Positions 4,594-31,869 are shown, counted from the stretch's first letter. The stretch: DNA of 32,000 bases from Halomicronema hongdechloris C2206 (GCF_002075285.3 NZ_CP021983.2:5545846-5577845), one strand, 5' to 3'. Numbers and translations: made by a program. The notes: generated from the sequence alone by a model not told the origin.

Positions 4594-5541
4594 ATGGCAC
4601 AATTTCACGTTGAATGCGTAGAATCTTTAGTTGAAGACGATCAGAGTCAGTATAGTCGATTCTTGATCGAGCCCCTAGAAAGAAGCCAGGGTAATACAAT
4701 TGGCAACGCTCTACGGCGAGTTCTCCTATCTAATCTAGAGGGGATTGCTATTACAGCCGTCCGTATTGCTGGAGCAACCCACGAATTTTCCACGATTCCT
4801 GGCATCCGAGAAGATGTCTTAGATATCCTTCTCAATATGAAGGAAATCGTTCTTAGGAGTCACACCAATCAATCTCAGATTGGGCGACTCTTGGTACAAG
4901 GGCCAGCTAAAGTGACAGCCGGTCATTTCGACTTACCTTCTGAAGTAGAGGTTGTCAATCCAGATCAACCGGTGGCGACCCTGGCAGAGGGGCATACCCT
5001 AGAGATGGAATTCCGAATTGAGCAGGGTCGAGGATATCGGGCCGTTGAACACAATCGGGATGACGCTGCTGCATTAGATTTTATGCAGATTGACGCCGTT
5101 TTCATGCCCGTTCGCAAAGTCAACTATTCAGTTGAAGATGTAATGATAGCTGGCTCCCTGCAAAAGGATCGGCTGATCATGGAGATTTGGACCAATGGGA
5201 GCATGACCCCGCAAGAGGCCATGAGCCAGGCGGCGGCTGTCCTCGTCGATCTCTTCAATCCGCTTAAAGACGTCACCTCGGAGCCAAAGCAGGGAGATGA
5301 AACCGAGGAAGAAGATCCTGTCAATCAGATTCCCATCGAGGAATTGCATCTGTCTGTACGAGCTTATAACTGTCTAAAGCGGGCTCAGATCAACTCTGTG
5401 TCTGATCTATTGGACTACAGCCAAGAAGATCTTCTAGAGATTAAGAACTTCGGTCAGAAGTCAGCTGAAGAGGTGATCGAGGCTCTGCAAGATCGCCTTG
5501 GCATTACCCTACCCATGGAAAAACCAGCCAAGTCTTCTTGA
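4594..5541 (+). CDS. rpoA: DNA-directed RNA polymerase alpha subunit
   Basis: 315 aa with an N-terminal domain ([14 protein letters not shown]) and a C-terminal domain ([33 protein letters not shown]). Confidence 0.97.
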
Positions 5542-16184: not shown

Positions 16185-16622
16185 TTAAGGGGTGGTTAAC
16201 TTCCGCCGTGGGGTGCCGGCCGCCAATGGCTTGACCGACTCCAAATCATCTCCCCGCATGAGCTACCCCTTTTCCTAGGACATTGAGGGAATTTGGCTGA
16301 ATGCTAATCCGTTCTACGGCGTCGGCCAGTCAGCTGAGGGCATGGTGAATCCATCGATTAATCGTTAGGTCTAAGGAGTTGACTGGCTCACCATCGCGTA
16401 AAGACTTGCTAGCAGCTGGCTAGACGAAGAGAATCGGCGGACCAGGTCCAGATCGGGTTTAACTCACCTGCATAGGGTAAATAACGCCAGACATATGCCT
16501 TACTCCCGGTAGTCGTTCCCAGCCTCTTCTAGTCTCCGCTATGCTGGGGGCCTAAACTATACTGACTACCGGGATTCCTTCTACTGCCGCCTTCTTCACG
16601 TCACCACTGCAGTCACCACAAA

Positions 16623-21218: not shown

Positions 21219-24149
21219 CTAGACAGTCGCCACTGCCTCAGGGCCAGGCAGTTGAGTCAGCACCAGATCGTTGTAGTCGAAGTCACTCCAGTCTTCGAAT
21301 CCCCAGCTGTTGCCACTGTGGTCCCAGCGTCCCTGGCTTTGCAGGCTGTCTGCAAGGGTCACCAGCTTGTTGCTGTTCCCCCGTGTCAGCATGGCGGGAG
21401 CCAGATACTGGCCATTGAGGGTATCAAGATCCAGTTCGAAGATCTCCGAGGCGCCATCGTCGACTCCCCATTGCACATCTAACAGACGTTCCCGCACCGC
21501 ATCGTCGTAGCCAGCCTGACCTGGCAGCACGGTTTGGCCATTGACCTCAATGCCGCCTTGGCTATCGGTGAGATAGAAGCTGAGCAGATTGTCGCTGGCA
21601 GATTCTCGGGTCAGTTCAAAGCTGAGGCTAGATTGGCCGGTGATATCGATTAGGGTATCCAGAGGCGCTTGGGGCTGCACAGGGGACTCTACCAACAGCT
21701 GATTGGCAGGCAGCACTGCTGGCTGGTTGGAGACGGCTGCCCCACCACGGCCTTGACTCACCGGTAGTGACGAGTTGATCAGATCGAGGTTATCGATCAG
21801 CAGGGCTGAGTTCACTGAGGTATCGCCGACATCGGCCACGCCAATGGCCACGTTGTAGACACCAGTCTGAGTAAACTCATAGGTGAAGGCATCGTACCCG
21901 GTCTGATTAGCGTAGTCAGCTCCGCCGAAGCTGACGACATCGCTGCCGGTATCGGCGAGTTCACCACCAAACTGGGAATCGATGACAACGAAGCCAAAAT
22001 CGTTGAAAGAGGGGCTAGGGGTGGCTTCGTTGGTCAGGAAGCTCCAATCGAAGCTGAGGGTATCGCCGGCATCGGCTTGGAAGGAGAACACTTCAATGGC
22101 TGAGCCCTCTTGGACATCACCATTGCCCATGGCATCCAGCGCCCCAGCCTGTAACCCCAAGAAAGATTCTAGGGCGGCTTCTGGAGCAGCTCCATCGGCG
22201 GTGGTCACGAGGGCTTGATATTGTCCCTCGGTGGGATTGGCCCCAAAGCTGTTAGTAACCACCGAGGTATCGCCGAGGCTGCGCCAACCGGTGAGGTTAC
22301 CGACTTCAAAGCCCCAGTTGTTCAGGGACTGACTGTCTAGCAGGGCAAAATTATCCACCAGGAGACCGGAGTTGACGGATGAATCGCCTTCGTCGACGAC
22401 GCCGAGGCCGATGTCGTAGGTGCCATCCTGGGCAAAGATGTAGTTGAAGGTGCCGTAGCCAGTTTGGTTACTGAAGCCACTGCCGCCGAAGCTGACGAAG
22501 TCGGCTTGGGTATCGGCCAGTTCGCCGCTGAAGGCATCGCTGATGGTGAAGAAGCCGAAGTCGTTAAAGGAGCTAGGAGTTAGTTCGTTGGTGAGGAAGT
22601 TCCAGTCGAAGCTGAGCAGGTCACCCGCCTGGACGGTGATGGCAGCCAGCTTCAGGGCAGACCCGGTGGTGACATTGCCATTGCCGAACACATCTAGGCT
22701 GCCGGGATTTAATCCCAGAAAACTTTCCAGGCTGGCCTCATCGACAGAGCCACTGCCATTGGTGAGCAAGGCCTGGTAGGTGCCATCGGTAGGACCCACT
22801 CCGATGGTGTCGGTCTCGATGGTGGTCGCGCCCAGGGTGGACCAGCCGGTAAAGTCGCCGAATTCGAAGCTGAGGTTGTCACTGGGGGTAGTGCCAGGAT
22901 TCAGGGCGTTGAAGGCATTGAGCCGGCCGCCAGTTACGGTTTTGCCGGTTAAAGCCGCCACCGGATCGACGCCGTCGAGGATGGCTTGTTTGACCTCCTG
23001 GAAGGAGAGGCTGGGATCTTGACTGAGCACCTGGGCGGCTACTCCGGCTACATGGGGCGTGGCCATGGAGGTGCCGCTGAAGCTGGCATAGCCACCAGGA
23101 ATGGTGCTTAAGATGTCGACCCCGGGGGCAGCCAGATCCACAGAGGTGGCGCCGTAGTTGGAAAAGCTACCGAGTTGATCGGTGTGGTCGGTGGCGGCGA
23201 CGGCAATGATATTGTCCAGGTCGTAGTTGGAGGGATAGTGGGGAATTAGGTCATTGTTATCGCCAATGCCGTCGAGGCCACCATTGCCGGCGGCGGCGAT
23301 GAAGAGCTGATCGGCAGCTCCGGCGGCTGCGATCGCATCGTAGATGGCCTGGCTAGGGGAACTACCGCCCCAGCTGTTGTTGGTCAGATCGGCCCCCATT
23401 AGGGTGGCGTATTCGATGGCCTGGGTGATGGCGAAGGTGGTGGTGGTACCGGCGGCATCGAAGATTTTTAGGGCCATCAACTGGGCATCAGGAGCGACCC
23501 CGGCAACGCCGATGCCATTATTGGTTTCGGCAGCAATGGTGCCGGCCACATGGGTGCCATGGCTATTGTCATCTATGGGATCAGAATCATTGTTGATGAA
23601 GTCATAGCCGTAGACATCATCGACATAGCCATTGCCATCGTCATCGAGGCCATTACCGGCGATCTCCCCGGCGTTGATCCACATGTTGTCGTTGAGATCG
23701 GGGTGGGTATAGTCAATGCCACTATCAATGACGCCGACCACCACAGTGTTGCCAGTGCTCTGCTGCCAGGCCTCGGGGGCATCGATATCGACATCGGGGA
23801 TGCCACCGGTTTGACCGGTGTTATGCAGGCCCCACTGGTCTGACAGGTCGGGATCATTGGGCAGCGGTGGTGTGGTTGGCGTATTTGTCGGTCCCCCTTG
23901 CAGGGTATAGATGGCGTTGGGTTCGATGTACTCCACCAGAGGGTGATCCTGGTAGGCGGCGATGGCTTCTGCTGTGGTCATGCCATCGATCTGCCACAGT
24001 TGCAGCGCATCGCCAGAGGCGGTGGCTAAGACCGAAGCCTGTAAGCCGTTCTGAAGTTGGTCAGCACCGGCCAGGCTAGCGCCTGACTTAAACTTGATGA
24101 TGACTTCACCGGCTTTGATTGGGTTAGACGAGCGGGCGGAGAAATTCAT
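21219..24149 (-). CDS. S8 (subtilisin) family serine peptidase with propeptide, duplicated ~180-aa module and DUF4114-like C-terminus
   Basis: 976 aa. The catalytic triad contexts are VGVIDSGID (Asp142), HGTHVAG (His197) and GTSMATPHVAG (Ser361). There are two tandem homologous modules (aa ~425-604 and ~609-790). The C-terminal WGFEDWSDFDYNDLVL resembles DUF4114. Confidence 0.9.
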   Translation of the reverse strand: MNFSARSSNPIKAGEVIIKFKSGASLAGADQLQNGLQASVLATASGDALQLWQIDGMTTAEAIAAYQDHPLVEYIEPNAIYTLQGGPTNTPTTPPLPNDPDLSDQWGLHNTGQTGGIPDVDIDAPEAWQQSTGNTVVVGVIDSGIDYTHPDLNDNMWINAGEIAGNGLDDDGNGYVDDVYGYDFINNDSDPIDDNSHGTHVAGTIAAETNNGIGVAGVAPDAQLMALKIFDAAGTTTTFAITQAIEYATLMGADLTNNSWGGSSPSQAIYDAIAAAGAADQLFIAAAGNGGLDGIGDNNDLIPHYPSNYDLDNIIAVAATDHTDQLGSFSNYGATSVDLAAPGVDILSTIPGGYASFSGTSMATPHVAGVAAQVLSQDPSLSFQEVKQAILDGVDPVAALTGKTVTGGRLNAFNALNPGTTPSDNLSFEFGDFTGWSTLGATTIETDTIGVGPTDGTYQALLTNGSGSVDEASLESFLGLNPGSLDVFGNGNVTTGSALKLAAITVQAGDLLSFDWNFLTNELTPSSFNDFGFFTISDAFSGELADTQADFVSFGGSGFSNQTGYGTFNYIFAQDGTYDIGLGVVDEGDSSVNSGLLVDNFALLDSQSLNNWGFEVGNLTGWRSLGDTSVVTNSFGANPTEGQYQALVTTADGAAPEAALESFLGLQAGALDAMGNGDVQEGSAIEVFSFQADAGDTLSFDWSFLTNEATPSPSFNDFGFVVIDSQFGGELADTGSDVVSFGGADYANQTGYDAFTYEFTQTGVYNVAIGVADVGDTSVNSALLIDNLDLINSSLPVSQGRGGAAVSNQPAVLPANQLLVESPVQPQAPLDTLIDITGQSSLSFELTRESASDNLLSFYLTDSQGGIEVNGQTVLPGQAGYDDAVRERLLDVQWGVDDGASEIFELDLDTLNGQYLAPAMLTRGNSNKLVTLADSLQSQGRWDHSGNSWGFEDWSDFDYNDLVLTQLPGPEAVATV

Positions 24150-24541
24150 GGTTAGCTCCTTGATTTAGACAGGTTGGGGGGAGCCTGTCAGCAGATGCCA
24201 TCCCTGATTCCATCACGTCTCTGGCCAGCCTGGGATAGTTAATCCTGCCGTTTTCCGGCCTAGACTGCGTATGGGGCTTTATGGAGAACACACCGCATCT
24301 GCTGGGGTTAGTCGAGGGCTCCAACCTTGCGGTCATCGATGAGTACGTCTCACGACGCTGCACCTATGCACTTGATTGACGGACACAAATCTCATGGCTG
24401 GCGGCTAGAAGCCGCACCTATTGCGTTTGTCAGGTAGCTGAGGACATCGAGAATCGCTCCCATGCCTAGACTAGGGAGCTACCCGACCGCAACCGTCCTA
24501 AGCATAGGCACGGTTGCTATGTACAGACACTAGTACAGAAA

Positions 24542-24962: not shown

Positions 24963-25433
24963 CTAGAGCCGTTCCGCCAGATAAGCCCGAAACCCAGCCA
25001 TTTTGCCATTGTCGTTCCAGCGCTCCCCAAAACGCTTGAGGGTCTCAATCAGATGGGGCTCTCCGTCCTGGAGGGCAGGGTCAAAACCCAGCAGCTCTCT
25101 TTGGGGAGTCAGGCTGCTCCAATCCTCGACCTCGGGTTGCCACCACAAGACTCGACAGATGCGATGGTACCAGAGGCCTTCTTCATAGGCTTCACAGTCC
25201 AGAATTTCGACCAGGTGAGTGAGTCTGCCGTTTTGGATCAGGGCCACCTGATCTGCCGCTTCAAGTTGATTCGCCTTATCGGTATGAAACCCCAGAGGAA
25301 AGACCGTGACGTAGTTATGGTCAACAGTGTGCGGCATGTCTCGGATGCGATCGCGCGTGTAGGCCCACCCACTGGGGTCATGGATGACCTTGACCCACTT
25401 CAGCTTTGAGAGGTCGATATGACTCATGTCCAT
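24963..25433 (-). CDS. Hypothetical protein, 156 aa, no family recognised
   Basis: The composition is balanced and globular-looking (Trp, Tyr and charged residues). It is preferred over the antisense ORF 24834..25409, whose translation is Leu/Pro/Ser-rich. Confidence 0.5.
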   Translation of the reverse strand: MDMSHIDLSKLKWVKVIHDPSGWAYTRDRIRDMPHTVDHNYVTVFPLGFHTDKANQLEAADQVALIQNGRLTHLVEILDCEAYEEGLWYHRICRVLWWQPEVEDWSSLTPQRELLGFDPALQDGEPHLIETLKRFGERWNDNGKMAGFRAYLAERL

Positions 25434-25500
25434 AACTCAGTAAGGGGCTGTCAGGCCGGGCAGGAAGCAAGGGCAGAGCCATTACCTGGTTGATGCTCGA

Positions 25501-25826
25501 CTAAGTATCTGCAGGCGATTCAGCGGCGGTCTCAGGGGCAGCCTCGGCGGGGGTGGCGTCGGTTGTTGTCTTCTCGGCGGAGTCAGCCGCAGGGGCTGCG
25601 GGTTGGGGGGTTGCCCGGGAAGGCTTGGGACCGCGCATCAGGGCTGGGTTAACTGGCGGTTTAGGCGTATCTCGTTCACCGCGGTTGCGATCGCGTTTGC
25701 CTTTGCCCTTACCCGTCCCCGCTGCTTCTGTTGCCGGGGGTCTTGCTGATCTCGGGACGCTGGAGACGATTCGGCGCTCTCTGCTTGTTTGGCTCGCTCA
25801 GAGCGCTTAATGGGACGGTCGACCAT
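25501..25826 (-). pseudogene. Small basic low-complexity protein gene with coding signal split over two frames
   Basis: ATG 25826 opens a 62-aa frame (MVDRPIKRSERAKQAES...) that stops at 25638. A second frame stays open from 25797 to TAG at 25501-25503. It encodes codon-like GKGKGKRDRNRGERDTPKPPVNPALMRGPKPSRATPQPAAP...ESPADT but has no start before the Met at 25644. This is consistent with a 1-nt indel near the C5/G4 runs at about 25716-25740. Confidence 0.3.
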
Positions 25827-25977
25827 GGCTAACCCTTGCTAAACACCTAGCTGATCCTAGCGTGAAGCAGTCGCCAGGCAGTGGCTACCCCACTATTGGC
25901 TGGATACGGCAGCCGACTCAATGCCCGAAGCTCAGCCCGAGTGAATAAGTCGCTGGGGCTCAGAAATAGGACTAAAC

Positions 25978-27435
25978 ATGCAGAGAGCTATCCCCATGCA
26001 GAGCCCCATGCAAAGCCCTAACCTTGGCTGCGGTTTGGCTCAATGCCAGACTAAACACAACTTCTTGCCTATTGCCGCTATGGATACCGCCAGCCAATAC
26101 TGGCATCTCATTCGGCTGACTGGGGCTGGCGATGGCCATAGCCACATGGTGCCTCAGGTCAAGACCTGGCTGCAGCCATGGTTAGCCGATGATATTAAGG
26201 ATGCCGAGACCACTCTGCAGCAGCGGCTGATCACGATCTGGCAGGCCAATCACGGCCAAGCCGACCTGGCCCAGCTGAGTCTGCGCTGCTTTATCAGTCA
26301 TCAGATTCGCGATGTCTGCCTGCAATTGGCCCAGCGCTTCGGCCCTACCCATGGCTTTAGCGCCCGGGATTTATTTCCCCTGGTATTAGACGATGACGGC
26401 CAGCTGCAGCCCAACCACCGCCCCTTCACCCTGGAGATTCTAGACACCTACGACCCGACCCAGGCCAATCTCGGCGCCTGGGCCCGGCGGCTCACCCAGC
26501 ACCATCGCGATCTGAATCAGGCCTTGCTGGAGCAGGGCCTCTATCGGGCCAGCGATTGGGCTATCCTCAACGACACCTCTGTCAAGCAGCTGCAGCGGAT
26601 TCTGCAGGACTACCACCACTGCAGTGATCACGAAATCAGCCGGGCCAGCCGGTTACTGCAGCAGTATCACCAGGTGTATCGTCGCGATCGCATCCGCAAC
26701 CGCCAGGGAAGTGCCAACACTCGCTGTCAGCCCCCCAGCCGGGAACAGTTGCAGCGCATTGAGCCGGCCATGGCGCCGAGATCATTGCTACACCGGCTCA
26801 AGACCCTGGCCAGCCAGCTGCGGGCCTATCGCATTCACGTCCGCAGTGGTCACCCCATTCCCTATAGCGATGCCGCCGTCGACTGGACCCAGGTAGCCGA
26901 CCCTAGGCAGTCCTGCCCCAATGATGACGATCAAGCTGCCTTCTTGGCCGCCTATCGCCAGGCCCTGGAGCAAGACCTGGACGCCGCCATTGCCGACAGC
27001 ATTACCACCGCCATCACCCAGCTACGGCAGCGCCGCCCGCCCAAAGATGACCCCTATGTCGAGGGCCTGTATTTATTCCACTGCCAGGGGATGGCCATGG
27101 GGCAACTGGCTCCCCGGCTGGGCCTCAGTGGTCAGGTGCAGGTGAATCGGCTGCTGCAGCTGAAACGCCTGCGGGCCGAGGTGCGTCATCGCCTGATTCC
27201 TAGCCTCTGCCAAACCGTCTACCAAGCGGCCCAACCCTATGTGTCTGCCGCCCAGCTCCAGCAGCTGAACCAGACCCTGGAGCAGCTATTGACCCAGGAG
27301 GTGGATCAGCTCCTGGACGAGGCCCGATCGGAAGCGCAAATTCCTAAAGATCGCACGGCTCAGAGTCTGTTTGCCCGTCGTCTCTGCCACGTAATTCATC
27401 GCTTTCTGTCGTCCCCTGAGACAGCCCTTGAATGA
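25978..27435 (+). CDS. Divergent sigma-70-like / HTH regulatory protein
   Basis: 485 aa (451 aa from the likelier start ATG 26080, MDTASQYWHL). LSLRCFISHQIRDVCLQLAQRFG resembles a sigma region-2-like helix. LYLFHCQGMAMGQLAPRLGLSGQVQVNRLLQLKRLRAEVRHRL resembles a region-4 helix-turn-helix. The stop overlaps the next start (ATGA). Confidence 0.5.
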   Translation: MQRAIPMQSPMQSPNLGCGLAQCQTKHNFLPIAAMDTASQYWHLIRLTGAGDGHSHMVPQVKTWLQPWLADDIKDAETTLQQRLITIWQANHGQADLAQLSLRCFISHQIRDVCLQLAQRFGPTHGFSARDLFPLVLDDDGQLQPNHRPFTLEILDTYDPTQANLGAWARRLTQHHRDLNQALLEQGLYRASDWAILNDTSVKQLQRILQDYHHCSDHEISRASRLLQQYHQVYRRDRIRNRQGSANTRCQPPSREQLQRIEPAMAPRSLLHRLKTLASQLRAYRIHVRSGHPIPYSDAAVDWTQVADPRQSCPNDDDQAAFLAAYRQALEQDLDAAIADSITTAITQLRQRRPPKDDPYVEGLYLFHCQGMAMGQLAPRLGLSGQVQVNRLLQLKRLRAEVRHRLIPSLCQTVYQAAQPYVSAAQLQQLNQTLEQLLTQEVDQLLDEARSEAQIPKDRTAQSLFARRLCHVIHRFLSSPETALE

Positions 27436-28586
27436 GTCGTTCTTCCCACACCGTCACCATGATGATTTCTATGAGCACTCCCGTGTCGCCCCAGGATTTT
27501 GACATTGCCCCTTGGCGCCCTAACACTGTGACCCTGCCAGAGACAGCAGTGCAGTGGGCCCTGCAGACATGTCAACCGATCCCAGATCCGGCCCAACAAT
27601 GGCAGATATTTCTACAAGCGCTGGCGCTACAGGGGTTTCAGCAGTGGTTAGCTGCTGGCACCTTAGAGTTGCCCCTGAGTGATGCTGGCCAACAGCAGCT
27701 GGAGGCAGGAATGACGACTTATCAGGTGGAGGGGTTCCGCCTCTGCCTGGTGGCCCAGGGTAGCCTCAGCGATGACCGGGTGACCCTGCCAGCAGCCAGC
27801 CTAGCGGCGACCAACGCCCATGCCCATTTCTGGGTTTTGCTGGAGGTGCAGGAAGAGGTCAACCAGGTGACGGTGCTGGGCAGTCTGCGTTGCGATCGCA
27901 TCACCGCGGCCCAACCCCTGCGGCCCAACGCCGAGGGCAGCTACACCGTGCCCATCGCCGCCTTCGACACCGCCCCCGAAGAGTTATTGCTGTACCTGAG
28001 CTGTTTGGACCCGGCCCAGTTGGCCGCCCCCAGCCTGGTTCGTCCCGCCGCCGAGGATATTCACCCCGGCGCCACCGACCGGCCCATCAATGTGGGCCGC
28101 TGGCTACAAGACCAGCTAGACGCCATGGCCGCCAGTCTGGCCTGGACCCTGCTGCCGCCCCTGGTGCCCACCACCGCTGGCCTGCGCAGCCCCAGCGAAA
28201 CCTTGACGGCGATGCTGGAGGAGCTGGAACCGACCCTGCCGGTGCCGGAGACGGCCGAGGGGCCTACACCGGATTTGCAGCGCTTTGGCTTGCCCTTTCG
28301 GCTCTATGCCCTCACCTGGACCCTGTTTGAATCGGCAACCCCGGAATGGTCTCTCCTGTTGCTCCTGGGTCCGGTCGACGGCCGTCAGCTGCCTGCCGGG
28401 ATCCGGCTGATGCTGCAGGATCAGCACACCATCCTGGTGGATCAGACCCTGAGCACCGACGCCGACGCCACCTATCTCTACGGCCAGGTCATCGGCACCT
28501 GGGAGGAAGAGTTCATGGCCACGGTGCAGTTACCCAGTGGCTCTACCCTCACCTTCCCCCCCTTTGTGTTTAACCCTGCCCCCTAG
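27432..28586 (+). CDS. DUF1822 family protein
   Basis: 384 aa. The N-terminal pattern (AVQWALQTC...QQWQIFLQALALQGFQQWLAAG) and the central block (AHFWVLLEVQEEVNQVTVLGSLRCDRI) fit my memory of cyanobacterial DUF1822. It sits in its usual neighbourhood beside sigma-like and CHAT genes. Confidence 0.55.
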   Translation: MSRSSHTVTMMISMSTPVSPQDFDIAPWRPNTVTLPETAVQWALQTCQPIPDPAQQWQIFLQALALQGFQQWLAAGTLELPLSDAGQQQLEAGMTTYQVEGFRLCLVAQGSLSDDRVTLPAASLAATNAHAHFWVLLEVQEEVNQVTVLGSLRCDRITAAQPLRPNAEGSYTVPIAAFDTAPEELLLYLSCLDPAQLAAPSLVRPAAEDIHPGATDRPINVGRWLQDQLDAMAASLAWTLLPPLVPTTAGLRSPSETLTAMLEELEPTLPVPETAEGPTPDLQRFGLPFRLYALTWTLFESATPEWSLLLLLGPVDGRQLPAGIRLMLQDQHTILVDQTLSTDADATYLYGQVIGTWEEEFMATVQLPSGSTLTFPPFVFNPAP

Positions 28587-28594
28587 AGGCCGCC

Positions 28595-30976
28595 ATGATC
28601 TATCGACTCACCGTTCACAAGATTGACCACAGCTGCCTGTTCGAACTGACTTGGGGCCAAAGCCAGCGGCTGACCGCCAGCCTGCCCTATCCCCCGGCCT
28701 TGACCACCCTCTACGGCGCCTGGCAGCGGGCCTATGTGACCTACTACCAACAAGGACTGCGGGGCCGGCCCGGGGCCGTGGGGCAGGTCTCGGCGATGGC
28801 CAAGCTGGACTGGCACAGCCAGGTGGTGCAGGCAGAAGCCCGCCTCCTCTCGGAGTTCCATCGCTGGCTGCGCCACGAGGCCCTCTTCGATCTGCGGGCC
28901 GAGTTAATGCGGCGGTCGCCGTCCGCAGCCGGTACTGCCGAGACGCGAGAACTATTTCTAGCCTGTTCTCCCCTGGAGCTGGCTCGTCTGCCCTGGGAGA
29001 CCTGGGAAGTGGGGGCCGATCTGGGCCAACCGGGTCAGATTCAAATCGTGCGCTCCCCCGCCACCATCCGTTCGCCCACCGCTGATCAGCAGCCGATACG
29101 CCGGGGCAAACCTCGGGTGCTAGCCATCTTAGGCGATGAGACGGGGCTCGACTTCGCCGGCGATCGCACCGCCCTCAAGGCCCAAAAGCAGCAGCTAGAG
29201 GTGCACTATCTGGGCTGGCAACCCCAAGAAGATGCGACCGCCCTGAAGCAGCGCATCTGCCAGACCCTGGCCGACTCCCGAGGCTGGGATGTGTTGTTAT
29301 TTGCCGGCCACAGCAACGAGGAGCAGCTGCTGGCCGGGCAGATCGCCATTGCCCCCCATACGTTTATCTCGGTCAAGGAACTGGCCCCCTATCTGCAGCA
29401 GGCCCAACGGCGGGGGTTGCGGTTTGCCCTGTTTAATTCCTGCAATGGCCTGGATATCGCCAATGGCTTGATCAGCCTGGGCCTGAGCCAGGTGGCGATC
29501 ATGCGGGAGCCGATCCATAACCAGGTGGCCCACAGCTTTCTGCTGCAGTTTCTGCAGCGGCTAGCCAACCACGAGGACGCCCAGGCGGCTCTGATGGGGG
29601 CCTGTCAGGATCTAAAGCTGGAAAAACAACTCACCTATCCCTCGGCCTATTTGGTCCCTTCCCTGTTTCGCCACCCCGATTCGCGGCCCTACCGGATCCC
29701 GCAGCGGGGCTGGTGGCGGCGCTGGCGACCCCGCCGCCGAGAAATGCTGGGGGTTGCGGCCCTGGCTCTGATCTCCCTGTTGCCGCCGGTGCAAGACTGG
29801 TTAATGAATCAACGGGTGCGATCGCAAGCCATCTATCGCCAGCTCACCGGTCAGATCGCGCCCCAGTCCAGTCCTCCCATCATGCTGGTGCAGATCGACG
29901 ACCGCACCCTGCAGGAATGGCGCATCGCCGAACCCCTGCCCATCGACCGCACCCTGCTGGCAGCGATCGTCACCCAGCTCAACCAACTGCAGGCACCGGT
30001 GGTGGGGATTGACTACCTGCTGGATCGGCCCCTGGCCGCAGATGCCCAGTTGCGACGCGCCCTCACCCAGGGAATTATCCAGGGAGACCGCTGGTTTGTG
30101 TTTGGGGCCAAGCGCAACCATCGGGGGGAGTGGCTGACGGTGCATGCCGATGTGGCCTCGCTGAACTGGAGCCTGGAGGGCGACATCTGGGTGCCCTGGT
30201 GGCACATTCGCCCCCGGGGCTGGTCGGATCGGCCCCGGCCCTTTAGCTACCAACTGGCCATGGCCTACCACCTCAGCCAAACCCCAGCCGGCCCCGTACC
30301 CGACCTGGCCAGCCGGCAATCCCTCCAGACCTTGATTCAGGACCACTGGCAGGCCACCCAGCAGCGGCCCCCCTTATCACCGCGATCCCGTTTACACCCC
30401 ATCACCAATGGCTCTTACTGGCTCTATCAACGCTGGTTGCAGCCCCTGTTAGATTTCTCCATGCCGCCCCGGCAGGTGTATACCGCCGTGCCCGCCTGGC
30501 AACTGCTGCAGGCCCCCGAGCAGGTAATGGCTACCCTGGGACTCGACTCCTTGGCCGATCGGGTGGTGATCGTGGCCGCCGGGGGCTACGACGAGGCCGG
30601 CTCTGCCGCCGGTGGTGGGGACAACTGGCCGCCGCCGCCGGCGATGGCTTACTGGCGGGATTCTGCGACCACCGGCCTCACGGGGGGCGAGGCCCATGCC
30701 TACATGGCCCATCACTTCTTGACCGGCCACCTGGTGGTGCCCCTACCCGATCTCTGGTTGGTGTTGGTGGCCGCCTTGGTGGGCAAGGCCCTGACGATGG
30801 CCGCTGCCCGCTGGCCCGACCCCCTGCGCTGGCGGTTGATCTTAGGCCTGGCCACGGCCGGCTATGGTCTGCTGACCCTGCAGCTCTACATCGGCGGCGC
30901 CCTACTGCCTACCGTGGCTGCTGCCCGCGGCAACGGTGTGGTTCTATCTCTGGCCCTATTGGAGGATTCACCATGA
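28595..30976 (+). CDS. CHAT (caspase-fold protease) - TM - CHASE2 sensor fusion protein
   Basis: 793 aa. The CHAT dyad contexts are WDVLLFAGHSNE (His239, nt 29309-29311) and LRFALFNSCNGLDIA (Cys283, nt 29441-29443). A TM span lies at aa ~384-399. The CHASE2-like region includes IMLVQIDDRTLQEW, PIDRTLLAAIVTQLNQLQAPVVGIDYLLDRP, VVIVAAGGYDEAG and TGGEAHAYMAHHFLTG. Hydrophobic spans follow at aa ~719-790. There is no C-terminal output domain. Confidence 0.8.
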   Translation: MIYRLTVHKIDHSCLFELTWGQSQRLTASLPYPPALTTLYGAWQRAYVTYYQQGLRGRPGAVGQVSAMAKLDWHSQVVQAEARLLSEFHRWLRHEALFDLRAELMRRSPSAAGTAETRELFLACSPLELARLPWETWEVGADLGQPGQIQIVRSPATIRSPTADQQPIRRGKPRVLAILGDETGLDFAGDRTALKAQKQQLEVHYLGWQPQEDATALKQRICQTLADSRGWDVLLFAGHSNEEQLLAGQIAIAPHTFISVKELAPYLQQAQRRGLRFALFNSCNGLDIANGLISLGLSQVAIMREPIHNQVAHSFLLQFLQRLANHEDAQAALMGACQDLKLEKQLTYPSAYLVPSLFRHPDSRPYRIPQRGWWRRWRPRRREMLGVAALALISLLPPVQDWLMNQRVRSQAIYRQLTGQIAPQSSPPIMLVQIDDRTLQEWRIAEPLPIDRTLLAAIVTQLNQLQAPVVGIDYLLDRPLAADAQLRRALTQGIIQGDRWFVFGAKRNHRGEWLTVHADVASLNWSLEGDIWVPWWHIRPRGWSDRPRPFSYQLAMAYHLSQTPAGPVPDLASRQSLQTLIQDHWQATQQRPPLSPRSRLHPITNGSYWLYQRWLQPLLDFSMPPRQVYTAVPAWQLLQAPEQVMATLGLDSLADRVVIVAAGGYDEAGSAAGGGDNWPPPPAMAYWRDSATTGLTGGEAHAYMAHHFLTGHLVVPLPDLWLVLVAALVGKALTMAAARWPDPLRWRLILGLATAGYGLLTLQLYIGGALLPTVAAARGNGVVLSLALLEDSP

Positions 30977-31869
30977 CAAGGCTTAATCGATATCTGCTGA
31001 CCCTGGCGGCCCTGCTGGGGATGACCATCGGCAGTGGCGGCCTGGCCCTGGCTGGCCAAGCTCAAGAGCTGGTCTCACCCACGGGCTGGCGAGAGATCTT
31101 CCGCTTCCTGCGGGAGGAGGCCGAGGACCGCCGGAATGGCCGCAATGGTGGCCCCAGGCCGGTGGGACTCTGCCTCCTCACCCCTGGCGCTGAGGAAGTG
31201 GTCTGGCATCGCACACCGCGCTTGCTCTGGCAGGGAGACTACACGGTAGGGGTGCGACGGACCGGCCAGGATCAGGTGCAGTGGCCAGAGAGCACTACCT
31301 CCCTGCCGGCAGGAATACACGCCGCCGACTATGGGGTCACCCCATTACCCTCAGGCCAATATGACTGGGTCCTCTACATCAACGCACAGGATACGGCAAA
31401 CCCCACCCTGTGGTACCCCTTTACGGTGATGGCCACCGGGGAACAACGCGATCGCATCACCACTCACTTGGCCGTCTTGCAAGCCCGGTTGACCCACGAG
31501 GGGGCCAGTGTGGAGGCCATTGCCCAGGCCCGGGCCGACTACTTCCTGGACCATGACCTACCCGCCGATGCCCTGCAGGAGGTGTTCGCCGTCAGCAACC
31601 CCTCCGAGGAGCTGCTGGCGATGCAAGAGACCCTGGTACAGGAATATGCGGTAACGGATAATAAGGCAGGTCCAGCGGCGTCAGCCCCATGGGGAGCATG
31701 TAGGATGGGCATTGCCAAAACTAAGCCGGGCATCTTGGCCAAAGCCTTTGAGGCAATGCCCATCAGCAACTCTGGTAATAGATTGGGAGGTTTTATGATG
31801 AAACCGACTTCATCTCCAGGTCTTCGAGTTCTGCACTCAAGGGGCAGACGTGGTATGGCTCCAGGCTGA
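30973..31869 (+). CDS. Secreted DUF928 family protein (3' boundary uncertain)
   Basis: 298-aa ORF whose ATG overlaps the upstream stop (ATGA), with GGAGGA 7 nt upstream. A signal peptide is present (MTRLNRYLLTLAALLGMTIGSGGLALA/GQ). The DUF928-like layout includes GLCLLTPG, TPRLLWQG, LPSGQYDW, a helical tail and ADYFLDHDLPADAL. The last ~80 codons look non-domain and overlap minus-strand toxin-antitoxin remnants. Confidence 0.55.
   Translation: MTRLNRYLLTLAALLGMTIGSGGLALAGQAQELVSPTGWREIFRFLREEAEDRRNGRNGGPRPVGLCLLTPGAEEVVWHRTPRLLWQGDYTVGVRRTGQDQVQWPESTTSLPAGIHAADYGVTPLPSGQYDWVLYINAQDTANPTLWYPFTVMATGEQRDRITTHLAVLQARLTHEGASVEAIAQARADYFLDHDLPADALQEVFAVSNPSEELLAMQETLVQEYAVTDNKAGPAASAPWGACRMGIAKTKPGILAKAFEAMPISNSGNRLGGFMMKPTSSPGLRVLHSRGRRGMAPG

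Follow-up and report, generated by a model that had tools for sequence, protein, structure and literature searches.

Fusions of a caspase homologue to the sensor domain CHASE2 have been noted in cyanobacteria since surveys of 2010-2012 (Jiang 2010; Asplund-Samuelsson 2012, PMC3501461), among them a Trichodesmium protein with one plus three membrane helices. In passages of a purely computational study, Kaur, Iyer, Burroughs and Aravind (eLife 2021, PMC8195603) describe proteins that combine a constant N-terminal alpha+beta domain (EACC2), a caspase domain and a variable C-terminus, with membrane-embedded CHASE2 among the variants. Genes for an extracytoplasmic function (ECF) sigma factor and for a DUF1822 protein neighbor those for caspase-CHASE2 proteins, and the same passages propose a succession of sensing, autoproteolytic activation and transcriptional output. 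Here we analyze a four-gene operon of Halomicronema hongdechloris C2206, located at positions 25978-31869 of a 32,000-nucleotide stretch of genomic DNA (the window, from whose first letter all positions are counted). Compared with what those passages describe, the core of this operon is a further member of the published, computationally defined system.

We assign the locus to the caspase(CHAT)-CHASE2, divergent sigma and DUF1822 kind of system with a probability of roughly 0.85. A preliminary description of the same DNA had presented the operon as lacking an assigned function. That claim to novelty was overstated, since published work defines the operon in part: the relevant passages of Kaur et al. 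2021 (PMC8195603) already describe the core neighborhood and a similar mechanism. What is new here is a DUF928-like fourth component with counted linkage, a two-module structure, a candidate promoter and regulon, a corrected start for the first gene, and frameshifts in the last two. Our reading will not surprise specialists after the 2021 paper, yet the system is widespread, uncharacterized and directly testable. The role of caspase-fold proteases in cyanobacteria, both orthocaspases and CHAT proteins, is a long-standing question on which there are almost no mechanistic data.

Domain anatomy of the four-gene unit

As the preliminary description held, the region carries four same-strand open reading frames (ORFs), A to D, all on the plus strand and tightly packed; our ORF call bears this out, and the junctions read exactly as had been reported. 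ORF B starts within the stop of ORF A in an ATGA (27432-27435). The ORF B stop codon TAG (28584-28586) is followed by an 8-nucleotide gap (28587-28594) and the ORF C start codon ATG at 28595. The C/D junction again reads ATGA (30973-30976), with GGAGG eight bases upstream. A scan inside the four-gene unit for sigma-70 consensus promoters and for terminators gave no signal above shuffles. The products of ORFs A and D are 100% identical to NCBI proteins of Halomicronema hongdechloris.

The family names proposed earlier for ORFs B and C pass Pfam. ORF B (27432..28586) is a DUF1822 protein, matching PF08852 with an E-value of 7.8e-31 and 107.9 bits against a cut-off of 25, over profile positions 2-360 of 370. 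ORF C (28595..30976, 793 residues as read) comprises an N-terminal constant domain, a CHAT domain, a transmembrane segment, CHASE2 and C-terminal transmembrane helices. Its N-terminal domain (residues 1-95, 28595..28879) is strongly conserved in orthologues (YRL..C.FELTWG...) and occupies the position of EACC2. This segment has no Pfam match, and a hidden Markov model (HMM) made from it found no other architectures in loci that were themselves selected through ORF C. The caspase-fold CHAT domain (residues 97-345, 28883..29629) scores 31.5 bits against PF12770, for which the cut-off is 24. The previously suggested catalytic dyad is present: His239 (29309-29311) and Cys283 (29441-29443) lie within GHSNE and FALFNSC.GLDIA motifs and are invariant in four orthologues. 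The CHASE2 sensor domain (residues 399-728, 29789..30778) matches PF05226 with an E-value of 1.9e-19 and 70.7 bits. Hydropathy reveals one hydrophobic segment before CHASE2 (residues 385-403) and further segments after it (residues 708-777). Pfam finds no TPR region in ORF C.

ORF D (30973..31869, 298 residues as read) is, by profile-profile comparison, a divergent DUF928-superfamily protein, and is predicted to be secreted. The plain DUF928 label given to it earlier does not survive at the level of Pfam. ORF D has no Pfam, NCBIfam or PADLOC match, and neither it nor six relatives match PF06051 even at E≤10. Direct and profile word-index searches with ORF D retrieved 17 relatives only, none of which carries a Pfam domain, and reached no DUF928 protein. 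We then compared the D family (69 sequences) by hhalign with a DUF928 profile of seven sequences, one encoded in locus L035 (Pfam E-value 1.2e-27) and six in cyanobacterial plasmids. This alignment has a probability of 96.9% and an E-value of 1.9e-10, and its 148 columns span nearly the whole domain. For comparison, control profiles score 0.1-2% against the D family, and a single DUF928 sequence in place of the profile yields only 6.5%. A remote relationship to DUF928 thus stands. The DUF928-like core spans residues 53-210 (31129..31602), preceded by an N-terminal hydrophobic, signal-like segment (approximately residues 1-29), and the protein carries a conserved GG(S/P)R...C motif. Canonical DUF928 genes adjoin CHASE2 and/or CHAT genes in five of six cyanobacterial plasmid loci, and therefore ORF D holds the position of DUF928 in unfused CHASE2-DUF928-CHAT triads.

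Both genes of the sensor half carry a frameshift. DNA alignment with the closest relative, locus L168, and comparison with orthologues place a 1-nucleotide insertion near 30908, close to the 3' end of ORF C. The conserved terminus of the protein (LPWLLPAATVW...) is encoded in the +1 frame, which runs to a stop at 30984-30986 and overlaps ORF D by 14 nucleotides, as in L001, L004 and L168. The ATGA at the C/D junction is therefore secondary, a product of the insertion, and the tight coupling claimed earlier has to be amended in this detail; coupling by overlap holds either way. In ORF D, a 1-nucleotide deletion follows 31642, as judged by comparison with L168 and orthologues. In the conserved frame, the protein would terminate in ...ICGNG, with a stop at 31659-31661 and a length of approximately 229 residues; as read, ORF D instead carries approximately 68 extra non-conserved residues after the deletion. 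These frameshifts could be real mutations or assembly errors.

If they are real, the Halomicronema operon might be a decaying, non-functional copy whose sensor module is disabled and which has no current signaling role. Relative to the closest relative, the insertion alters the last ∼22 residues of ORF C, where the last hydrophobic segment lies, and the deletion swaps the conserved C-terminus of ORF D, including a conserved cysteine, for the 68-residue tail. However, both changes fall at extreme 3' ends, the catalytic and sensor domains are all intact, and so are ORFs A and B. Moreover, single-base indels are a common assembly error and are here indistinguishable from real mutations. We consider decay of this copy quite improbable.

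Linkage and modular structure of the system

To count linkage, we used an ORF C alignment to scan a single genome from each species, which retrieved 363 relatives. The best 80 of these 363 loci were evaluated with our own HMMs for families A to D. Counts refer to loci with enough flanking sequence. Within this set of 80, every record that names an organism is cyanobacterial. ORF D lies directly downstream of ORF C in 64 of 75 loci, ORFs A and B are both present in 47 of 64, and all four families occur together in 43 of 62. Thus, the survey of gene neighborhoods advised in the preliminary description finds a co-occurrence of the four families that is far beyond chance. Where A and B are present, the B-C spacing is below 400 nucleotides in 39 of 47 loci. 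Inserts of 2.8-6.5 kilobases separate B from C in eight loci, and that of L052 encodes a TPR-CHAT-type protein. Three of 11 loci that lack D encode a short secreted protein with the same N-terminal motif as D, and D is missing altogether in the Okeania/Dapis clade.

We regard the operon as a combination of two modules (A+B and C+D) that usually occur together, because A adjoins B in all five loci retrieved through an ORF A homologue and C+D also occur without A and B, as in L006 and L007. Fusion proteins support functional coupling of the parts of the system: one joins A to DUF1822 (P0230), another carries CHAT, TRADD-like_N and A (P0231), and a third combines AAA_35 with A (P0163).

Individual loci depart from the common arrangement. 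In Sodalinema gerasimenkoae (L003:12476-15075), the ORF C orthologue that follows A and B is split into three fragments and is apparently a pseudogene; it is succeeded by a short D-like variant of 150 residues, as is also found in L024, L028 and L030. A Peptidase_C14 (orthocaspase) gene resides near the C+D module at L004:7625-9928, L006:309-2549 and L007:1-1134, with DUF4384 present in L004 and L006. Proximity to a second protease of the caspase fold may be a recurrent feature of this module.

ORF A and its candidate promoter

The product of ORF A (26080..27435) had been called sigma-like, and the support for this name comes from remote similarity. Pfam, NCBIfam and PADLOC return no match for ORF A, and sequence and profile searches against the PDB return noise only (calmodulin, cellulases). 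A word-index search collects 554 homologues, every one of which is named hypothetical and lacks a Pfam domain, and a profile search against 1.84 billion representatives yields a closed family of 682 members. The term is retained because weaker methods, namely helix-turn-helix (HTH) matches, hhalign and Foldseek, consistently point to a divergent sigma-70/ECF-like protein.

Pfam Sigma70_r4_2 matches three of 86 family members (best E-value 8e-6), among many other HTH families, and Sigma70_r2 matches neither the ORF A of the window nor any of the 86. The retrieved cyanobacterial loci gave no ECF sigma genes, so our ECF profile was built from ten other sequences: Escherichia coli RpoE (checked against 1or7) and nine annotated ECF sigma factors from plasmids. 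In hhalign, ORF A residues 300-358 align with RpoE 123-174, which is sigma region 4, with a probability of 74.5% and an E-value of 2.7e-5. The putative sigma-4-like HTH extends over approximately residues 300-385 (26977..27234). A second, weak but collinear match (P 0.005) pairs residues 121-142 (LDTYDPTQANLGAWARRLTQHH) with RpoE 61-81, the region 2 motif F.TWL..I..N. When a single RpoE sequence replaces the profile, the probability falls to 1.9%, though the alignment is at the right place.

Structure prediction leads in the same direction. An AlphaFold2 model of full-length ORF A is all-helical (pLDDT, the predicted local distance difference test, 86.8), and its best Foldseek matches include Thermus sigma-A chains at an E-value of about 0.3, none of them significant. 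A separate model of residues 40-215 (pLDDT 89.4) gives 42 Foldseek matches at E≤10. Sigma factors account for approximately 20 of them, with entries for sigma-S, for the sigma-A proteins of Mycobacterium, Synechocystis and Thermus, and for the ECF factors SigW, SigK, CnrH and BldN. The best of these have template-modeling (TM) scores of 0.36-0.41 and E-values of 1.3-9, none individually significant. Together with the hhalign match they outline a possible sigma-2-like helical region at approximately residues 55-165 (26242..26574). A sigma-4-type HTH in ORF A is thus moderately supported at the level of sequence profiles, a sigma-2 domain is only suggested, and identification of the entire protein as a very divergent sigma-70/ECF-like factor is weak. 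Five cysteines (C70, C80, C216, C335 and C436) are invariant or nearly so across the family; the first long helix contains an RC...C arrangement and the linker a C..P motif. Such cysteines are unusual for sigma factors and might serve in metal binding or redox sensing.

Upstream of ORF A we found a bipartite motif, TGAATAAG-N11-CAGAAATA (25942..25968, plus strand), which scores 29.9 with a position weight matrix against a shuffled-window maximum of 12.9; no other copy in the 32 kilobases is strong. The motif also bears on where ORF A begins. It ends at 25968, ten bases before the ATG at 25978, and both the homologues and the NCBI model (451 residues) begin at the methionine encoded at 26080. 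For these reasons, translation of ORF A probably starts at 26080, and the longer ORF that opens with the ATG at 25978 is probably not used.

The consensus TG(A/C)ATAAG-N11-12-YAGAnnTA is common to regions upstream of ORF A, where the flanks are not conserved. A strict pattern finds 81 sites in 1.47 megabases of related cyanobacterial loci (L001-L087) versus 0-2 in shuffles, 75 of them on the operon strand, and positions that the pattern leaves free also carry information. Sites occur upstream of A (22), upstream of a separate C (4), directly after D and at other genes of the clusters. For genes other than A, the distance from motif to start codon is typically 31-59 nucleotides, and the genes preceded in this way encode TPR-CHAT proteases, subtilases, PPC-domain proteins, RTX calcium-binding proteins and small TPR proteins. 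When the whole metagenome collection was scanned without bias for a stringent form of the motif, 66 sites emerged (L103-L167). A-family genes directly follow six of them, and genes for homologues of other motif-associated proteins follow another ten, for a total of 16 of 66 at system genes; the remainder are mostly in low-GC contigs with nothing related, as chance predicts. A search of Rfam with the ORF A leader gave no family, and a literature search for the motif returned primers only. On the simplest reading, the motif would be a dedicated promoter recognized by ORF A, which would make the operon autoregulated.

Alternatively, ORF A might be an ordinary HTH regulator, either activator or repressor, with the motif as its operator and DUF1822 as a co-regulator. 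The HTH is the only part of ORF A that matches sigma factors with moderate confidence, and for family members, matches to many unrelated HTH families are just as frequent as those to Sigma70_r4_2. The missing Sigma70_r2 match, the modest Foldseek statistics and a length more than twice that of an ECF sigma factor are also compatible with this alternative. Nonetheless, sigma-factor entries, ECF factors included, are the dominant Foldseek class for two independent models, and the weak sigma-2 motif match sits at the correct, collinear position. The motif itself resembles a promoter in being bipartite, in its fixed spacing (∼27 nucleotides overall), in its orientation with the downstream gene (75 of 81) and in its distances from start codons. 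In addition, an independent analysis names the DUF1822-linked gene an ECF sigma factor in the passages that concern it (PMC8195603). We therefore judge an ordinary regulator to be improbable and retain the sigma-like reading of ORF A.

Several further observations concern the motif. ORFs of ∼95 residues with double-glycine-like leaders (...ELSAQELEEVAGG..., identified by eye) follow it at L035:2890-3174 (minus strand), in L139, where the motif is at 1194, and in L164, where it is at 4598 on the minus strand. This hints at secreted peptides as part of the putative regulon. The window also contains two sub-threshold copies, both below the range of true sites (at least 21.8). One, at 16469-16495 (plus strand, score 19.2), is intergenic and follows a gene for an RRM protein. 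The other, at 24344-24370 (minus strand, score 13.1), lies ∼195 nucleotides upstream of a divergent S8 subtilase gene; subtilases are preceded by the motif in other genomes (L053, L061, L008).

This subtilase (21219-24149, minus strand, 976 residues) is encoded divergently upstream of the operon and consists of a Fervidolysin-like prodomain, Peptidase_S8 and a long C-terminal region in which a segment of ∼190 residues appears, by eye in the translation, to be internally repeated. Beyond it lie the housekeeping genes hemB, fba (class II aldolase) and carbonic anhydrase, according to Pfam annotation. The subtilase gene is separated from the operon promoter region by a 156-residue ORF that has no Pfam match (24963-25433, minus strand) and by a GC-rich stretch of ∼500 nucleotides with no supported gene (25434-25940). 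The GC content of the operon (26080-31869) is 63.4% versus 53.4% in its surroundings, and GC at third codon positions is 0.69-0.79 versus 0.50-0.68 in neighboring genes. The higher values could reflect horizontal origin or gene-specific composition.

A candidate signaling pathway and its relation to known systems

The best-supported model for the components is a transmembrane proteolytic signaling pathway. ORF C would be a membrane receptor with CHASE2 in the periplasm and the N-terminal constant domain and CHAT in the cytoplasm. ORF D would be exported and act at CHASE2, as a co-receptor or a ligand-presenting partner. A periplasmic signal might switch on the CHAT protease, probably by autoprocessing or oligomerization, and the activated protease could then act on the pair formed by ORF A and DUF1822. 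We suppose that DUF1822 would keep ORF A inactive until cleavage or release frees it. Free ORF A would steer RNA polymerase to the bipartite motif, and its output would include its own operon, as positive feedback, and in other genomes neighboring genes for TPR-CHAT, subtilase, PPC-domain and RTX-type proteins.

Domain anatomy, co-occurrence, fusion proteins and the placement of DUF928 beside CHASE2 and CHAT on plasmids all fit the proposed partnerships. The logic of periplasmic sensor, cytoplasmic protease and sigma-like protein with DUF1822 had already been sketched in the preliminary description. Its anatomy holds, and linkage and the fusions of A with DUF1822 and with CHAT and TRADD-like_N speak for it; two of the four family names on which it was based fail database thresholds. 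We give the mechanism as a whole about an even chance, and the specific role of DUF1822 as a cleaved inhibitor a lower one still.

A number of observations weigh against this account. About a quarter of loci have C+D but no A+B within 10 kilobases, and coupling of the modules is consequently not obligatory. The case for ORF A as a sigma factor is weak: HMMER provides no link from the ORF A family to sigma factors among the best 150 of its 682 matches, and neither the sigma-2 match nor any single Foldseek match is significant by itself. A factor other than ORF A could bind the motif, and phylogeny confounds the covariation between the third base of the motif and ORF A residues 351, 353 and 360, which lie in the putative recognition helix. 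DUF1822 has no detectable similarity to anti-sigma factors in Pfam or to any solved structure among PDB sequences. The 3' frameshifts in ORFs C and D mean that the sensor module of Halomicronema hongdechloris may be impaired, unless they are assembly errors. Finally, our literature search found no experiments on any component; DUF1822 and DUF928 receive passing mentions only.

The same parts might instead constitute a conflict or programmed-cell-death system. CHAT would then be an effector that responds to a signal of danger, phage or non-kin by cleaving essential cellular proteins, the sigma-like protein would only amplify the expression of further proteases and toxins, and the outcome would be death or dormancy of the filament cell, with no adaptive switch. 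Passages of Kaur et al. 2021 (PMC8195603) place such systems among the apoptosis-like and immunity systems of multicellular bacteria. A-family proteins are fused to TRADD-like_N with CHAT and to the STAND-like AAA_35 domain, the clusters hold several extra TPR-CHAT proteases, and the genes preceded by the motif include those for RTX proteins and for small peptides with double-glycine-like leaders. Defense genes also appear in or near some clusters: a Gp49/HI1420 toxin-antitoxin pair (L001:13512-14139), a type I restriction-modification system with HicAB (L004:1-5612) and Cas6 (L007:10339-11526). However, these associations are anecdotal, none of the four proteins matches a PADLOC defense family at E≤0.1, and the neighborhood in the window (hemB, fba, carbonic anhydrase) is of a housekeeping nature. 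Furthermore, many products of motif-preceded genes start like signal peptides, which points more to an extracytoplasmic output than to self-destruction. A cell-death role seems unlikely to us, and we continue to favor transmembrane signaling.

A more far-reaching form of the signaling account is offered tentatively, as a possibility that we do not expect to hold in full. A caspase-like receptor and an orphan sigma factor might constitute a private-promoter circuit in filamentous cyanobacteria, controlling as its regulon exported proteases of the TPR-CHAT and subtilase types along with PPC proteins, RTX proteins and small peptides with double-glycine leaders. The DUF928-like protein could be a periplasmic co-receptor or pro-ligand. 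The circuit would be a bacterial counterpart of signaling from death receptor to caspase to transcription, serving kin, danger or developmental decisions within filaments, and its sigma factor a new, very divergent sigma-70 branch regulated by caspase-fold proteolysis through DUF1822.

The 363 receptor relatives in species-representative genomes show that the system is widespread. The pathway is also testable, as it offers a defined sensor, a catalytic dyad and a candidate transcription factor, and the candidate promoter and regulon could be used as a reporter read-out. If ORF A were confirmed as a sigma factor, it would widen sigma-70 sequence space and add a caspase-type route to sigma activation.

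In the RseA/DegS/RseP-sigmaE pathway, an extracytoplasmic signal leads to proteolysis across the membrane, which frees an alternative sigma factor that autoregulates and controls envelope and secreted proteins. The proposal made here shares with it transmembrane proteolysis that would free an autoregulating sigma factor. In place of a site-1/site-2 protease pair, however, a CHAT domain predicted to be cytoplasmic is fused to the sensor. Moreover, DUF1822 lacks similarity to known anti-sigma domains, and ORF A, at ∼450 residues, is barely recognizable as a sigma factor. A precedent for a link from CHAT to sigma is the Craspase of type III-E CRISPR. TPR-CHAT (Csx29) of that complex and HetF are CHAT-family His/Cys proteases used as signal-activated switches, and cleavage of Csx30 in Craspase is tied to a sigma factor (CASP-sigma/RpoE). 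Csx29 is activated by target RNA, whereas the protease considered here would be activated by a membrane sensor. Membership in type III-E Craspase, in which the CHAT protease is encoded with gRAMP/Cas7-11 and Csx30/Csx31, was rejected, given that Pfam reveals no cas genes among the upstream genes of the window and no TPR in ORF C. A catalogued defense system was likewise rejected on the PADLOC result.

Like the C+D module, the plasmid CHASE2-DUF928-CHAT triads bring together, in adjacent genes, CHASE2 as a membrane sensor, a DUF928 protein that is secreted, and CHAT as the protease. The triads, however, encode CHAT and CHASE2 as distinct proteins along with a canonical DUF928, whereas ORF C unites the two domains and ORF D has diverged too far for Pfam to recognize it as DUF928. 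No pair of A and DUF1822 is annotated in those plasmid stretches. With the metacaspase/orthocaspase-CHASE2 fusions, ORF C shares an N-terminal caspase fold, predicted to be cytoplasmic, and a CHASE2 domain flanked by transmembrane segments, and its Trichodesmium orthologue is found in locus L051. Those surveys treat single proteins with no operon partners, and the domain of ORF C scores as CHAT (PF12770), not as Peptidase_C14.

The closest counterpart is the EACC2-caspase system of Kaur et al. 2021. The passages that define it make no mention of a DUF928-like gene, of the promoter motif or of a regulon, and the conserved domain of ∼95 residues before the caspase of ORF C is matched to EACC2 by position. 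In its other features the locus agrees with what those passages describe: a caspase fold with a His-Cys dyad, a sensor composed of CHASE2 and transmembrane segments, and DUF1822 and sigma-like neighbors.

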